A stretch of DNA of 64,000 bases, taken from the NCBI GenBank assembly GCA_050303415.1, contig JBNLBS010000019.1, forward strand, positions 16,545-80,544. Direction: 5' to 3'. The translations under genes were made by a program, and so were the position numbers. The stretch comes from Methylococcaceae bacterium. Its GTDB lineage: Bacteria; Pseudomonadota; Gammaproteobacteria; Methylococcales; Methylomonadaceae. Below the pieces are notes generated by a model. It did no database searches. It was not told the origin of the DNA and saw only the letters and a list, made by a program, of their open reading frames with translations. This document shows, one piece after another, positions 32,327 through 37,484 of the stretch (position 1 is the stretch's first letter; each line of letters starts with the position of its first letter).

Positions 32327-32920
32327 TTAATCCATTCGATTAAGCGCTGAGCTTAATGTTTTTACTGTTTCCAATACCAGTTTACGTTGTGCTTGATCCA
32401 AGGATGAATATAAGGTCATCAGTTCGCGTATATCTTCCGGAAATGACAAGCACAATGGATCGTGCTCAACATGCTGTTCATCCATCCAGCCCTTAGGAAG
32501 TGAAAAATGACTTTCATATTTTCTCGCAATGGTTCTGGAGATGGTTTTAAACGGGTTATCAATAAATAACAAAAGTTTATCAATATCGATGTCTAAAGAG
32601 TGTACGAATTCATTTAATTTTTTTTCCTGGTCTTTGATTTCTTCATAACTATTACACAGGTTTTGATGCCGGATGGCCTGCAGATCCCTGGCATTGGGCC
32701 GAATAGGTCCGAGCCCGAACATCAGCCAGCAGGGTGAACTTTGTGTGGCTTTGGCAATTCGTAATATATCATCCGGCCCCGGGGTTGATATACCGGCTTC
32801 ATAATTACCGATTCGTGATGCGCTCCAGCCCGGTATTTGTTCCAATAGCGCAGCCTGAGTATTAAGCCCGGCCATTTTTCTAGCCATTTTTATCCGTGCC
32901 GCAATCGTTTTTTCGCTCAT
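32327..32920 (-). CDS. XRE/Cro-CI-family HTH transcriptional regulator with unrecognised ~140-aa C-terminal domain; start probably MSEKTIA at 32920
   Basis: HTH_XRE pattern IAARIKMARKMAGLNTQAALLEQIPGWSASRIGNYEAGISTPGPDDILRIAKA. Confidence 0.7.
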   Translation of the reverse strand: MSEKTIAARIKMARKMAGLNTQAALLEQIPGWSASRIGNYEAGISTPGPDDILRIAKATQSSPCWLMFGLGPIRPNARDLQAIRHQNLCNSYEEIKDQEKKLNEFVHSLDIDIDKLLLFIDNPFKTISRTIARKYESHFSLPKGWMDEQHVEHDPLCLSFPEDIRELMTLYSSLDQAQRKLVLETVKTLSSALNRMD

Positions 32921-32999
32921 AATTTTGCTTTTTAACCTTGGTGTGAACAATCAATTCATTTATTGGCACAACATTTTACAAGAAACTTGAAAAAAAATA

Positions 33000-33027
33000 T
33001 TGACAATCTTGATTTTAATTTTATAAT
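33000..33027 (+). promoter_or_regulatory. Near-consensus sigma-70 promoter TTGACA-16 nt-TATAAT with upstream A-tract
   Basis: TTGACA 33000-33005, TATAAT 33022-33027, AAAAAAAAT UP-like element 32991-32999; divergent from XRE gene. Confidence 0.55.
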
Positions 33028-33034
33028 GCCACCA

Positions 33035-33248
33035 ACATTTAATTTATTAGGATTATTCCCTGATGACTTTTAACAACGGAAAACTAAATATACGCAAGCA
33101 GCCGGCAATAGCAATGCTTTATACATTGCATGCTGTTTGTTACAGGTTGAGTTAGGTCTTCCGTTTCAGGAAGGCCGTGCAGTTGCCTTCCAACTTATTA
33201 AAGTTTCAGTAGAAACCCCGGTTGGATCTCTGCCAACCGGGGTTTTTT
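33035..33248 (+). ncRNA. Candidate small transcript (sRNA or mRNA for a 28-aa peptide MTFNNGKLNIRKQPAIAMLYTLHAVCYRLS) ending in a strong rho-independent terminator
   Basis: Consensus promoter upstream. Internal hairpins are present. Terminator AAACCCCGGTTGG-atctctg-CCAACCGGGGTTTTTTATT lies at 33213-33250. Confidence 0.3.
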
Positions 33249-33530
33249 ATTGCCCAAGGACAGGCTACCTACTTTAACCGTTAGTTCTTGAGGTAGATTT
33301 GTCAGTCAGGTTTTGGATGCACTTAACGTGACCGGTATCAGCCTGACCGCAGAATTCAGGTAACTGACATGATTGCAAAAAGCTTGTTGTTATAACTAAA
33401 CATTAATCATCGATAATCCGATGTACCGAATTGGACGGATGCTGTTAATCCAGCGGTTCAGGTTCTGTATACCTGTCCGGCGCACGATACATTTTGTTGA
33501 CTGTGTACCCGATTAATAGTGGTTCAATAA

Positions 33531-33603
33531 CTCGAGGATAGCTCAATGGGTAGAGCGGTTGACTCATAATCAACTTGTTAAGGGTTCAAGTCCCTTTCTT
33601 CGA
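33531..33603 (+). tRNA. tRNA-Met (anticodon CAT)
   Basis: Manual cloverleaf folds in full: 7-bp acceptor TCGAGGA/TCTTCGA with one G-U pair, D-arm GCTC-AATGGGTA-GAGC, anticodon stem GTTGA/TCAAC with loop CTCATAA, T-arm AAGGG-TTCAAGT-CCCTT. CCA is not encoded. Confidence 0.7.
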
Positions 33604-33606
33604 TCC

Positions 33607-33674
33607 TGGAAAAGTAGCTCTTGGTGAGCCCGGATGATAAATCCGTTTATGTAGGTTCGAATCCTACCTTTTCA
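33607..33674 (+). other. Degenerate tRNA-like element: intact acceptor, T-arm GTAGG-TTCGAAT-CCTAC, but D-loop and anticodon loop only 5 nt each; 3 nt downstream of tRNA-Met
   Basis: Manual folding: GGAAAAG...CTTTTCA acceptor with 1-72 mismatch, D GCTC-TTGGT-GAGC, AC-stem CGGAT-GATAA-ATCCG; 68 nt, too short for a canonical tRNA. Confidence 0.35.
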
Positions 33675-34005
33675 CTTTTAACCTGCAACACAGGTTTATT
33701 TTGATCTTCGGATCGTAGGGTCGGCGCCAGTCGGCGAATATGGAGTTTGTTTGACAAAGGATGTTGGAGACAACGGCGTATTGGCTTTGCATGGTGTCAG
33801 CCGGATAAAGTTCAGAACAGTTTATTGATACAGGTCCATTCGATGGGCGCGCTTGACAGGATGTCCACATCAGCAAACAGGTCTTTACTTTTTCCGCCAG
33901 ACAACATCCGCCAATAGGTCGTGGCGCCGAACCTAAATTTTTACCAATAAGGATTTAAACAATAATACTGCCTTAAAAGGCAACAAAAAGGGAATGGAGG
34001 GAACA

Positions 34006-35145
34006 ATGTTTATCAAACGATTTATCATTGCCGAAAATGAACGCGGTTTGTTTTTTCACAACCGGACTTTACAGGACATTATGGAATCCGGCGTCTACAC
34101 CTTTGTCGATTGGCGCAACCGGATTAAAGTCGAAATTTTCGACTTGAACGAACCGGTTTTTAAACACAGTCTGGAGGATGTGTTGTTAAAGCAGCACGAG
34201 GATTTATGCAAAACCTATTTCCAGGTCATCCAGCTGAATGAAAACCAAGTAGGTTTGGTCTACCGCAACGGCCTATTATCTGAGGTGTTACCGCCTTCTA
34301 CCAGAACGTTTTACTGGAAAGGTTTGATTGATATAGACGTTGAAGTCATCGACATTAAATCCGATTTTCAATTGGATGCAGACAAGACCCGGTTATTGAC
34401 CCGTGTGCGAGATGCTGCATTGGTCAGGGTTTTGGCTAACTACATCACTGTTGCCGAAGTGGCGGACCAGCATGTCGGTTTATTGATTGTCGACGGTCAG
34501 TTGATCAAGGAATTACAGCCTGGTGTCTATGCATTTTGGCGTTTCAACCGCTCGATTAAAGTCGAAATGGTCGATAAACGGGTTCAAATGATGGAAGTCT
34601 CAGGTCAGGAAATTTTGACCGGAGACAAAGTGTCATTACGAATCAATCTGTCAGTGGCCTTTCAAATACAGGATGCGGTGAAAATACGTTCAGCATTCAA
34701 GGATATGTTCGATTACTTGTACCGCGAATTGCAATTCGGTTTACGACAAGCGGTAGCCGGTAATACGTTGGATAATTTATTAGCGGAAAAAGGTTCGGCC
34801 GAACAATGTGTATTTAAATACATTTTGGAAAGGATTCAAGATTGCGGTATTCGCTTTATTACAGTCGGTATTAAAGACATTATTTTGCCGGGTGATATGA
34901 AGTCGATTTTAAACCAGTTAGTGGAGGCGGAAAAACAGGCTCAGGCCAATGTTTTAAAACGCCGCGAAGAAACCGCAGCAACCCGGTCATTGCTGAACAC
35001 TGCAAAATTGATGGATGAAAATCCAACTTTAATGCGTTTGAAAGAGCTGGAGGTTTTGGAAAAAGTCACCGGCAAAATTGACCGCATGACCGTTTTCGGC
35101 GGTTTGGAAGGTGTCTTAAAAGATACCGTTAAAATCAATGTGTAA
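34006..35145 (+). CDS. SPFH/band-7 (stomatin-prohibitin-flotillin) domain protein. Its N-terminus has two extra tandem copies of the SPFH N-terminal beta-unit. Start ATG 34006 after GGAGGG
   Basis: C-terminal LRINLSVAFQIQD...ITVGIKDIILPGDMKSILNQLVEAEKQAQANVLKRRE SPFH core is present. Three internal repeats begin ERGLFFHN..., ENQVGLVYRNG... and DQHVGLLIVDG..., each followed by G-Y-F-W and the [IV]KVE/DVEV motif. Confidence 0.7.
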   Translation: MFIKRFIIAENERGLFFHNRTLQDIMESGVYTFVDWRNRIKVEIFDLNEPVFKHSLEDVLLKQHEDLCKTYFQVIQLNENQVGLVYRNGLLSEVLPPSTRTFYWKGLIDIDVEVIDIKSDFQLDADKTRLLTRVRDAALVRVLANYITVAEVADQHVGLLIVDGQLIKELQPGVYAFWRFNRSIKVEMVDKRVQMMEVSGQEILTGDKVSLRINLSVAFQIQDAVKIRSAFKDMFDYLYRELQFGLRQAVAGNTLDNLLAEKGSAEQCVFKYILERIQDCGIRFITVGIKDIILPGDMKSILNQLVEAEKQAQANVLKRREETAATRSLLNTAKLMDENPTLMRLKELEVLEKVTGKIDRMTVFGGLEGVLKDTVKINV

Positions 35146-35260: not shown

Positions 35261-36457
35261 ATGCCTATAAAAATGAAAATGACAAAAGGCAAGGTACCGG
35301 TCAAAGTTTGGACCGAAGATATTGAATACGGTGCCATTCAGCAATTATGCAATATCGCGCAAATGCCGTTTATCCATAGTCATGTTGCGGCCATGCCTGA
35401 TGTGCATCAGGGGATTGGCGCAACCGTGGGTTCGGTGATACCGACCAAGGGCGCCATTATACCTACCGCAGTGGGTGTTGATATCGGCTGCGGAATGAAT
35501 GCGGTCAGGTTAACGCTTAAAGCTGAACAATTACCGGACACTCTAAAACCGGTGCGTAACGCCATTGAAGCGGCCGTACCTGTCGGCTTTGCCATGCATA
35601 ACAAAGATATGGCCAGACATTCGACCATTATTGCTTTGGCCGAACCATTGGGCCGATTACAGGAAAAGCATCCGGCGATCAAAAAAATGCAGAAAAAGCC
35701 ATTTCAAACCTGGGTTAGACAACTGGGTACTTTGGGTGGCGGCAACCATTTTATTGAACTGTGCCTGGATGAAAGCAACGACGTCTGGATTATGCTGCAT
35801 TCCGGCAGTCGGGGTATTGGTAATGCGATCGGACGTTACTTTATCCAGTTGGCCAAAAAAGATATGGGGCAACAACTGGGACATTTACCGGATAAGGATC
35901 TGGCCTATTTTACTGAAGGTGCACAATACTTTGAGGATTATGTCGAAGCCGTGCATTGGGCGCAGGATTATGCCATGTGGAATCGCAGGGAAATAATGCG
36001 TTCGATAGTTGATGCATTGAAAGACGTCCTGCCGCGATTTCAAGTCAGCAAGGAAGCGATTAATTGCCATCATAATTATGTTGCGCTCGAACAGCATTTC
36101 GGGGAACAGGTTTATCTGACCCGCAAAGGGGCGATCAGTGCCGGCCAAGGCGAGCTGGGTATTATTCCCGGCAGCATGGGGGCCAAGTCCTATATCGTTC
36201 GGGGTAAAGGTTGTGCCGCTTCATTTCATTCCTGCTCACATGGTGCTGGCCGGGTAATGAGTCGTTCACAGGCCAAAAAACGCTACAGTTATCGGGATGT
36301 CGAAGCGCAGACTGAAGGCATTGAATGCCGAAAAGACAGCGGCGTTATCGATGAAATTCCGGCGGCCTATAAGGATATTGATCACGTAATGGAGAACCAA
36401 TCAGACTTGGTTGAGATTGTACATACCCTGAAACAAGTCGTTTGCGTCAAAGGATAA
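35261..36457 (+). CDS. rtcB: RNA-splicing ligase RtcB (3'-phosphate/5'-hydroxyl RNA ligase)
   Basis: Conserved metal/GTP-binding residues pattern: VGVDIGCGM, GGGNHFIE, HSGSRG, CHHNY, full length 398 aa. Confidence 0.9.
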   Translation: MPIKMKMTKGKVPVKVWTEDIEYGAIQQLCNIAQMPFIHSHVAAMPDVHQGIGATVGSVIPTKGAIIPTAVGVDIGCGMNAVRLTLKAEQLPDTLKPVRNAIEAAVPVGFAMHNKDMARHSTIIALAEPLGRLQEKHPAIKKMQKKPFQTWVRQLGTLGGGNHFIELCLDESNDVWIMLHSGSRGIGNAIGRYFIQLAKKDMGQQLGHLPDKDLAYFTEGAQYFEDYVEAVHWAQDYAMWNRREIMRSIVDALKDVLPRFQVSKEAINCHHNYVALEQHFGEQVYLTRKGAISAGQGELGIIPGSMGAKSYIVRGKGCAASFHSCSHGAGRVMSRSQAKKRYSYRDVEAQTEGIECRKDSGVIDEIPAAYKDIDHVMENQSDLVEIVHTLKQVVCVKG

Positions 36458-36506
36458 GCCGGATGTTCGGTTGGGCATCCGGTTTTATTGCAACAGGAAA
36501 ATTGTT

Positions 36507-37484
36507 ATGAAACTGGAAACTATTAAAGAAATTATTGAAATCATGCCTAAAGGTAAAACCAGATTTCACTATTTTAAAGATCGCTACGCTTTAATGTTGT
36601 TATCCGATTTAATTGAAGACGGGATTAAACTTTCCGAGCTTAAGACGACACCTTGGGCAAAACTGTTGAACCGACCGCTGGTTAAAAGCTTGAGCTCCCA
36701 GTGTGGTGACGGTGTGCTTTATAAGCATGATCTGGACAGTATCTGGCCGGATTTTACCAGGCAGTTTTTACTTACATTAAGCCAATGGGGCGGAGAACGG
36801 GCAAGCTGGCAACAAACCTGCCGACATGGCTACAATCTGGTATTGCAACTGAATTTCAGCAATCAGCATCATGCCTTGTTTAACAAACTGCTAAGGCCGA
36901 TGAAACATCATAGCCTACGCAGTTGCGGGCATCCGGTTATGCAGCCGGATGAACGTGAGTTATTTCGGGAAACACTGGCCTGGGCACGTATAGATCTGGA
37001 TTTTGACCGCAATGAAGCCCTGATTGAAGAAATTCAAAACGACTGGCTTAGGAATGCGCTATGGTGGTTGAGTTATGTCAAAAGATGTCAAAAAAATCAA
37101 CGACGGTTACCCGCAAATTACTGTTTGCAGACCGACTTGGAAAAAGTCCAAAGCTATTGCGATAAAGTATTAATGCCATACCGCAAAATGTGGGATGAAG
37201 CGATGTTGGCGGCCAGCATCGATTTTATCTACAAGCAGCTGGGTATAAACGTCATTTATTATCACAGCTACGAAAGCGGCGCCTGGTTAAAGTCCATCTC
37301 ATCTACGCTGCCGCCTCGGTCTTTATATACCGATTTACCTAAGCGCTTTTGTTTTACCTGTACCGAACAGGAGCCGACTTTCCTATCTGAAGATCGGTAC
37401 TTTAGAAACCGTAAACGCAAGGGTAAACACCTAAACTATTACTGGTATAGGATGGATTTGGGAGCTGGTCATGTTACGGCCTAG
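36507..37484 (+). CDS. Hypothetical Cys/His/Trp-rich protein co-transcribed with rtcB (start probably MKLETIKEI at 36507 after AGGAAA)
   Basis: 325 aa, no recognisable motif; CGDG, CRHG, CGHP, CFTCTEQ Cys clusters; 50-nt gap from rtcB. Confidence 0.45.
   Translation: MKLETIKEIIEIMPKGKTRFHYFKDRYALMLLSDLIEDGIKLSELKTTPWAKLLNRPLVKSLSSQCGDGVLYKHDLDSIWPDFTRQFLLTLSQWGGERASWQQTCRHGYNLVLQLNFSNQHHALFNKLLRPMKHHSLRSCGHPVMQPDERELFRETLAWARIDLDFDRNEALIEEIQNDWLRNALWWLSYVKRCQKNQRRLPANYCLQTDLEKVQSYCDKVLMPYRKMWDEAMLAASIDFIYKQLGINVIYYHSYESGAWLKSISSTLPPRSLYTDLPKRFCFTCTEQEPTFLSEDRYFRNRKRKGKHLNYYWYRMDLGAGHVTA

Follow-up and report, generated by a model that had tools for sequence, protein, structure and literature searches.

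Promoter, leader and terminator upstream of the operon

The region studied here, positions 32978-33248, lies in a 64,000-nucleotide (nt) stretch of DNA from a Methylococcaceae bacterium (contig JBNLBS010000019.1); the whole stretch is called the window below. On one side of the region, on the minus strand, is the gene of an XRE-family regulator of 197 amino acids (aa; 32327-32920, with its ATG at 32920 and an upstream TTG at 32950 as a possible start), and on the other side, on the plus strand, are two tRNA-like genes followed by the genes of an SPFH/Band7 protein, the RNA ligase RtcB and a 337-aa protein. A preliminary description of this DNA had reported a consensus promoter that drives a terminated transcript of about 210 nt, divergent from an XRE regulator. 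The observation is confirmed as real and not due to chance, and the divergent regulator was found as described. We consider that 32978-33248 probably controls an operon for the response to translation damage, by means of an operator layer served by the XRE protein combined with a transcription attenuator that works through a leader peptide.

The sigma-70 promoter, TTGACA-16-TATAAT (33000-33027, plus strand), agrees with the consensus at 12 of 12 positions and has an A-tract on its 5' side. Its -35 hexamer occupies 33000-33005 and its -10 hexamer 33022-33027, and the predicted transcription start is at about 33034. It had been called unusually perfect, and it is indeed the sole 12/12 site between 31500 and 35000, where six other promoter-like sites score 9/12, a level that occurs at chance frequency. 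The palindrome ACAAGAAACTTG (CAAG-N3-CTTG; 32978-32989, plus strand), the presumed XRE operator, is located 10 nt 5' of the -35 hexamer, and an extra CTTG half-site (33008-33011) follows the hexamer. The palindrome is kept in position and sequence in about 45 of the related loci introduced in the next section. The promoter consensus of these relatives reads ACAAG-N3-CTTG, 8-10 nt, TTGACA or TTGCA plus CTTG, and TATAMT; their -35/CTTG region appears as TTGACAnnCTTG or CTTGCAnnCTTG at the same place, and their -10 as TATAMT or TAGACT with the spacing unchanged. The combined promoter and operator pattern occurs once in the window, against 0.01 occurrences expected by chance. The CAAG/CTTG half-sites around the promoter are most likely the operator to which the divergent XRE repressor would bind. 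In some loci of Chromatiaceae (L009 and L052; also L011), tandem repeats of GCAGTTG(G) or GGGCAGT, with 6-8 units, stand between the XRE start codon and the operator.

The XRE protein has an HTH_3 domain at its N-terminus; its C-terminal part, of about 120 aa, is a conserved helical domain to which no function is assigned and for which no match was found among solved structures. Its homologues (n = 400) form a tight family with 54 invariant columns, and its HTH domain resembles those of ImmR, P22 C2, TP901-1 CI and DdrO. Exact-sequence look-ups of the XRE and Band7 proteins of the window gave no match.

The transcript computed from this promoter is about 215 nt long, close to the earlier estimate, and folds far better than shuffled sequences (z = -5.0; none of 200 shuffles folded as well). 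It ends at an intrinsic terminator (33212-33248, plus strand) that comprises a 5' arm, GAAACCCCGGUUGG (33212-33225, named segment 4), a loop (33226-33232) and a 3' arm, CCAACCGGGGUUUU (33233-33246, named segment 5), and has a stability of -24.2 kcal/mol. As had been noted, the terminator is strong, GC-rich and T-tailed; the stem was found to have 14 pairs with a 10-bp G+C-rich core, not 13 pairs, and the tail is a run of six T residues (33243-33248) followed by ATT, not a run of seven.

A short open reading frame (ORF) is embedded in the transcript. It spans 33063-33155 on the plus strand and consists of 30 codons and a TAG stop, encoding MTFNNGKLNIRKQPAIAMLYTLHAVCYRLS; the peptide therefore has 30 residues and not 28 as first given. 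A Shine-Dalgarno-like AGGA (33049-33052) is located 10 nt before the ATG. The ribosome-binding site is weak, as had been noted, because there is only AGGA at a 10-nt spacing. Three further segments were recognised between the ORF and the terminator. Segment 1, GGUCUUCC (33155-33162, plus strand), starts at the last base of the stop codon and has segment 2 as its partner; segment 2, GGAAGGCC (33169-33176, plus strand), can pair with segment 1 or with segment 3 (33185-33195, plus strand). Within segment 3, GCCUUCC (33185-33191) pairs with segment 2, and UCCAACU (33189-33195) is a candidate antiterminator strand which can pair with GGUUGGA (33220-33226) of the terminator.

The leader family in other genomes

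A genome scan for the XRE gene returned 55 gammaproteobacterial loci, and the carriers belong to Chromatiaceae, Sedimenticolaceae including Thiodiazotropha, Ectothiorhodospiraceae, Thioalkalispiraceae, Thiogranum and Methylococcales. In nearly all 55 loci the XRE gene is divergent from the genes of Band7, RtcB and the 337-aa protein, the order of which varies, and the leader module was matched in 48 gammaproteobacterial loci. In all of the 48 it is divergent from the XRE gene and precedes an operon that combines tRNA-like genes or arrays of 10-25 tRNA genes with the genes of an SPFH/Band7 protein, RtcB and the 337-aa protein. Almost every locus presents the same arrangement, namely promoter, Shine-Dalgarno sequence and short ORF, terminator, 1 to 25 tRNA genes, and protein genes. 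Four closer relatives, among them L072, whose XRE protein is 95% identical to that of the window, were added to the comparison. A covariance model constructed from 33 leaders, with the window left out, matched 33138-33250 of the window (plus strand) end to end with 50.7 bits (E = 2.6e-10), and a search of the window with it found no second plus-strand copy of the leader. Sequence homology alone would miss the family, because the blastn matches of the intergenic region are found only at the promoter, a 35-nt element described below, the tRNA-like gene and the terminator, and the ORF body gives no match.

None of the 4227 families of Rfam release 15 reaches its gathering threshold over 33030-33250. 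The best score is that of His_leader (26.1 bits against 49), and the weak scores of His_leader, ohsC (20 bits against a threshold of 50), P15 and anti-hemB all rest on the terminator; the same comparison with 11 related loci gave only tRNA above threshold. The preliminary description had considered that Rfam might place the transcript in a long tRNA leader. It matches no Rfam family, but it does lead into tRNA-like genes here and into tRNA arrays elsewhere. Literature searches for a leader peptide of rtcB or tRNA arrays, or for a link of these with an XRE protein, returned nothing beyond the armZ and Anabaena cases discussed below. The leader family is new to Rfam and to the searched literature; the kind of regulator is known, with a close functional precedent in Pseudomonas.

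The promoter, the frame of the ORF, the position of its stop codon, helices 1:2 and 2:3 and the terminator are all conserved in the family. As to the ORF, 33 leaders with 1,382 codons contain no stop in the ORF frame, compared with 100 and 82 in the other two frames, and the summed log10 P of this openness is -22 when 21 dissimilar representatives are treated as independent. In 45 of 48 leaders the stop codon occupies the same three columns of the model-based alignment, abutting segment 1, and in 44 of 48 an ATG-started ORF of at least 20 codons closes at that alignment column. A Shine-Dalgarno sequence and an ATG are present in most loci, and the homologue in L075 was called as a gene by the gene caller. 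The length of the ORF ranges from 23 to 68 codons. Between the window and L072 the length and frame are kept, 7 of the 30 residues differ and the nucleotide changes are nearly all non-synonymous. To judge from these sequences, the leader ORF is a real reading frame that nevertheless encodes no conserved protein.

Some features of the peptides recur. Most clades end in x-Met-x-stop, and Chromatiaceae and the clade of the window and L072 have Leu-Ser, Leu-Arg or Leu-Lys before the stop (33144-33155 in the window). The final codons are synonymous between clades (CTG AGC TGA versus TTG AGT TAG). One possibility is that the kinetics of peptide release explain the recurring ends. A QPG-like motif is also found repeatedly near residues 10-15, and the remainder of the peptide drifts.

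The terminator is kept in position and sequence in the 48 loci, with 96% of its cells paired and compensatory changes in 7 of 11 pairs; its family sequence is AAACCCCG...CGGGGTTTTTT, about 60 nt past the leader ORF. The comparison with L072 reveals a compensatory change of C-G to U-A (CCCCGG/CCGGGG to CCCTGG/CCAGGG), and all six substitutions in the 3' domain between L072 and the window are structure-neutral or compensatory. Helices 1:2 and 2:3, which share segment 2, both show covariation. For helix 1:2, examined in 49 leaders, 78.9% of the cells are paired versus 68.8% in shuffles (0 of 500 shuffles reached the observed value), and 9 of 10 pairs have compensatory changes; for helix 2:3 the paired fraction is 97%, and 8 of 9 pairs have such changes. 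The off-state as a whole, that is, helix 2:3 together with the terminator, has 96.7% of its cells paired and compensatory changes in 15 of 20 pairs; none of 500 shuffles was as good, and slid controls gave 34-57%. In 34 of 34 leaders, the 3' flank of segment 3 is able to form a duplex with the terminator (5' arm and loop), with energies from -7 to -18 kcal/mol. When the native partners of this 3:4 duplex were compared with partners swapped across clades, the native ones were the more stable, both in the window (-9.3 vs -6.9 kcal/mol) and in the family means (-14.4 vs -11.5 kcal/mol).

The distance from the terminator to the first protein gene bears on what the leader controls. In L006 and L053 (RtcB) and in L034 and L039 (the 337-aa protein), this gene starts at most about 44 nt past the U tract, the shortest distance being 29 nt, and in L003 RtcB starts 80 nt past it. 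Since no promoter fits in most of these gaps, these genes would have to be expressed by read-through of the terminator. RtcB follows the leader directly in L003, L004, L006, L042 and L053; in the window it comes after the tRNA-like genes and Band7, as the second protein gene.

Proposed mechanism and competing explanations

We propose that the region acts in two layers. The XRE protein would repress the promoter at the CAAG/CTTG sites. Once transcription has started, a ribosome that reaches the stop codon of the leader ORF would cover segment 1, so that segment 2 pairs with segment 3, terminator 4:5 forms and the transcript stops at about 33248. Completed translation would thus yield the short terminated RNA noticed in the preliminary description, as an 'off' product. 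If the ribosome is late, stalled in the ORF or absent, helix 1:2 would form and leave segment 3 free for the 5' arm of the terminator (3:4), and the polymerase would then read through into the tRNA-like genes and the genes of Band7, RtcB and the 337-aa protein. Cleaved or scarce tRNA, damaged ribosomes or inhibitors may be the causes of such stalling.

Minimum-energy folds of the window RNA agree with this scheme. For nascent RNA ending at 33228-33236, helices 1:2 and 3:4 were obtained without a ribosome or with a ribosome stalled in the middle of the ORF, and helix 2:3 was obtained instead when 33138-33167 was masked to represent a ribosome at the stop codon. The terminated state (-36.2 kcal/mol) is more stable than the antiterminated state (-20.3 kcal/mol), and therefore the decision of the switch would be kinetic; the two energies resemble those of the trp leader.

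What the leader would sense can be stated only tentatively. Among the 30 residues of the window peptide there are 17 different amino acids, and no codon forms a run. The absence of codon runs places the element outside the amino-acid-sensing subtype of attenuators, and for the same reason the leader would report general translation capacity and not the supply of one amino acid, tests of diversity and codon usage being suggestive. The leader peptides are slightly more diverse in their amino acids than random stretches of protein (mean z = +1.08), and the codon adaptation of the ORF is low (1.5th percentile), as any weakly selected ORF would be expected to show. Neither value is decisive, and the idea that the leader is a sensor of all tRNAs was rejected. 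A generic sensor of translation capacity, in which any delay in decoding the codon-diverse and drifting ORF while the RNA polymerase waits flips the RNA to read-through of spare tRNAs or tRNA-like decoys, SPFH and RtcB, is a possibility to which we give slightly less than an even chance.

Several points weigh against the attenuator. Leader translation and conditional read-through are what we infer from sequence, and the ribosome-binding site of the window leader is weak. The model is least secure in its 'on' structure; it has about an even chance of being right on the antiterminator helix in its exact form and on the switch's polarity. The 3:4 duplex has a z of -2.2 against shuffles, which is moderate support. 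Its register differs between clades, so that the helix is not homologous column by column and its column-wise covariation is uncountable. The pair counts given above were made on alignments fitted by covariance models and hence tilt towards the modelled structure. In a family-wide equilibrium test, the 5' arm of the terminator was pre-paired at 0.59 with no ribosome or a mid-ORF ribosome versus 0.55 with a ribosome at the stop codon, a difference that is not significant (p = 0.07-0.18), and for the window alone no drop in the pair probabilities was seen (0.75 vs 0.81). In Chromatiaceae, the stability of helix 2:3 (-20 to -24 kcal/mol) greatly exceeds that of helix 1:2 (about -9 kcal/mol), and therefore an 'on' state in this group would need to be kinetic. 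An extra 'segment 0' is also possible there, whose pairing with segment 1 would make the untranslated RNA terminate. Finally, the terminator and the next gene are 285 nt apart in the window, another terminator-like hairpin (33680-33702) occurs before Band7, and there may be extra promoters downstream of the attenuator.

In the Chromatiaceae loci L009-L019 and L052, the sequence CUGAGUC at the stop codon and segment 1 can pair with GACUCAG directly 5' of the leader ATG.

The competing explanation that survives best, although we regard it as unlikely, is control by the XRE protein alone, or by a protein or RNA ligand bound to the leader, such as a damaged tRNA. The leader would then be riboswitch-like or subject to protein-dependent antitermination, and the ORF would be incidental or modulatory. 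The operator-like sites conserved around the -35 hexamer fit such control, the conserved C-terminal domain of the XRE protein could sense a signal, and rtcB is elsewhere under the proteins RtcR, TrcR and DdrO/IrrE; the family-wide simulation of the ribosome, not being significant, also leaves room for it. An incidental ORF, however, is disfavoured because it would show neither an open frame nor a locked stop codon, whereas here the frame is open in every lineage despite the drift of the sequence and the stop is locked to segment 1 in 45 of 48 leaders. Nor is there a conserved unpaired region beyond the helices that looks like a ligand pocket.

The preliminary description had taken the transcript for a possible free-standing small RNA (sRNA), and a strong promoter, a terminator and a stable fold (z = -5) are what would be expected of a stand-alone, trans-acting sRNA of about 215 nt, to which the ORF and the downstream genes are irrelevant. 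The 285 nt that separate terminator and next gene in the window would suit it too. We nevertheless think it improbable, somewhat more so than control by XRE or a ligand. The module always lies between the same regulator and the same operon, with the next gene 29-44 nt past the terminator in several loci. Its conserved parts are mutually exclusive helices tied to the stop codon; the sequence of the RNA body 5' of the stop codon is not conserved and therefore offers no evident conserved seed region, and none of the Rfam sRNA families matches. The best reading of the terminated RNA is that of an 'off' product of an attenuator. Attenuator RNAs can double as sRNAs, rnTrpL of Sinorhizobium being a reported example, and a role of this kind would be compatible with attenuation.

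It is very improbable that the 30-aa product is itself a functional small protein, such as a regulatory micro-protein or the type I toxin suggested in the preliminary description, with the RNA structures controlling its own expression. Such a protein would account for the conserved open frame with its ribosome-binding site, for the QPG-like motif and for the x-M-x-stop or L-S-stop ends. Conservation of a product is not what is seen, however, with 7 of 30 residues changed relative to L072 and lengths of 23-68 aa. The peptide has no transmembrane-like segment, its highest Kyte-Doolittle hydropathy over 17 aa being 0.97 (-0.47 to 1.62 across 27 peptides). Nor is an antisense promoter or RNA evident, since the minus strand has a single promoter-like site (33114-33087), which scores 9/12, again at chance frequency, and the Rfam score of ohsC (20 vs 50 bits) covers the terminator only. 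A phage switch of the CI/Cro type, the remaining suggestion, was rejected: the divergent ORF is variable and at 30 aa too short for Cro, the neighbours are MCP, Band7 and RtcB, no XRE relatives were found among 2.9 million viral contigs, and only the HTH fold is phage-repressor-like.

Known systems and the downstream operon

That compromised translation induces RNA-repair genes and 'cryptic' tRNA arrays in bacteria is well established. To our knowledge, the sensing step is known only for RtcR, which responds to tRNA fragments, and partly for armZ.

The closest precedent of the window leader, a functional one, is armZ of Pseudomonas aeruginosa (PA5471), an RtcB-like gene. It is attenuated by a 13-aa leader peptide, PA5471.1; in the published model, full translation of the peptide leads to the terminator, and stalling, an early amber codon or a cca defect leads to read-through (PMC13041342, PMC12057347). 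Going by the published description, an RtcB-family gene is preceded there too by a short ORF and an intrinsic terminator, the polarity is the one that we propose here, and both leaders would report general trouble in translation, not the supply of one amino acid. The Pseudomonas leader has 13 aa and four segments with the terminator at 3:4, whereas the present family has 23-68 aa and five segments with the terminator at 4:5. The Pseudomonas promoter is described as constitutive and has no adjacent XRE gene, and what follows is armZ and PA5470 and not tRNA-like genes, Band7 and RtcB.

In Anabaena, a long tRNA array (the trn operon), rtcB and a slipin/SPFH gene are co-regulated and silent until translation is impaired; the two papers mention no leader, attenuator or XRE protein (PMC8421152, PMC10272220). 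This TrcR regulon comprises the same functional set as the present family, whose relatives carry 10-25 tRNA genes behind the leader. The Anabaena genes are scattered and under repression by the ribbon-helix-helix protein TrcR on direct repeats (TGTAGTAT-like) over the -10, whereas here there is one operon with an XRE protein and CAAG-N3-CTTG around the -35.

The attenuators of trp, his, leu, thr and pheL and the His_leader of Rfam share with the window a leader ORF, mutually exclusive hairpins, a terminator and comparable helix stabilities. They differ in having runs of regulatory codons and a stop inside segments 1-2, whereas in the window there are no runs and the stop lies before segment 1; moreover, the extra segment of the window leader would invert the outcome expected with no ribosome. 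A ribosome on a leader ORF also controls read-through into stress genes in BmrB-bmrCD of Bacillus subtilis (PMC4191407) and in mef/mel (PMC4335068). These differ in taxa, sequences and function (efflux or ribosome protection versus RNA repair and tRNAs), and no homology is implied. In E. coli and Salmonella, rtcBA is under RtcR/sigma-54 control, and Deinococcus has the DdrO/IrrE system; both resemble the present case in having a dedicated regulator, encoded beside rtcB or acting on it, and induction by damage to RNA or translation. DdrO is an XRE-family repressor too, and an RtcB gene is induced in the DdrO/IrrE response. Unlike the RtcR/sigma-54 system, the window has a 12/12 sigma-70 promoter, an adjacent 197-aa XRE regulator and a putative attenuator as a second layer. 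The annotated neighbours include no recognisable gene of RtcR or of an IrrE-like protein.

The family thus places a simple candidate sensor, a leader ORF whose stop is locked to a switch, before RtcB and tRNA arrays in dozens of genomes, with the XRE protein as a second layer. If the leader is a generic sensor of translation capacity, this would be a self-contained module for sensing and repairing damage, widespread in sulfur-oxidising and methane-oxidising Gammaproteobacteria, and it would supply the sensing step still missing for stress-induced long tRNA arrays. The RNA family is defined with covariance models and can be used for annotation. The comparison also links the literature on the armZ leader peptide with that on Anabaena trn/TrcR, which had not been connected before, and draws attention to unusual tRNA-like genes with unconstrained anticodons beside RtcB.

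Downstream of the terminator, a conserved RNA module extends over 33448-33702; at 97.7% identity with L072 it is better conserved than the leader. It begins with a 35-nt element, CAGCGGTTCAGGTTCTGTATACCTGTCCGGCGCAC (33448-33485, plus strand), which is up to 94% identical in distant loci; a sigma-54 promoter in this element was considered and rejected, as by eye there is no GG-N10-GC match. The sequence GTGTGTAC is also part of the module, as is tRNA-like gene 1. The latter (33532-33606, plus strand) has a CAT anticodon and U1-A72 and no encoded CCA, and it is followed by a degenerate tRNA-like gene 2 (33608-33675, plus strand). The hairpin mentioned above (33680-33702, plus strand), which has a T run, lies 3' of the pair. 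A YrlA (Y RNA-like) score for the tRNA-like pair in Rfam is weak (E = 9.5), and no Ro/Rsr gene is present among the neighbours examined.

The SPFH/Band7 gene (33994-35145, plus strand) and the RtcB RNA ligase gene (35261-36457, plus strand) were assigned by Pfam, NCBIfam and synteny. The gene of the 337-aa protein (36471-37484, plus strand) is conserved in the operon with 36-48% identity across loci; the protein has no Pfam or NCBIfam match, and in some loci its gene is the first past the attenuator.

In relatives, the tRNA-like gene proximal to Band7 keeps its body, and its anticodon varies (cat, gat, ttg, tct, caa, aaa, tgt, tga, att and even tta); examples, in locus coordinates, are L011 557-630, L012 440-514, L024 2495-2566 and L037 3145-3223. 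Because the anticodon changes freely, this gene is suggested to be non-decoding, which in turn suggests a role linked to RtcB, in which its RNA serves as decoy, as substrate or as regulatory RNA. In eight loci (L021, L023, L033, L038, L041, L044, L047 and L055), arrays of 10-25 tRNA genes are found between the promoter and leader and the genes of Band7 and RtcB. These arrays are gammaproteobacterial counterparts of the 'L-arrays' that have been studied only in Anabaena.

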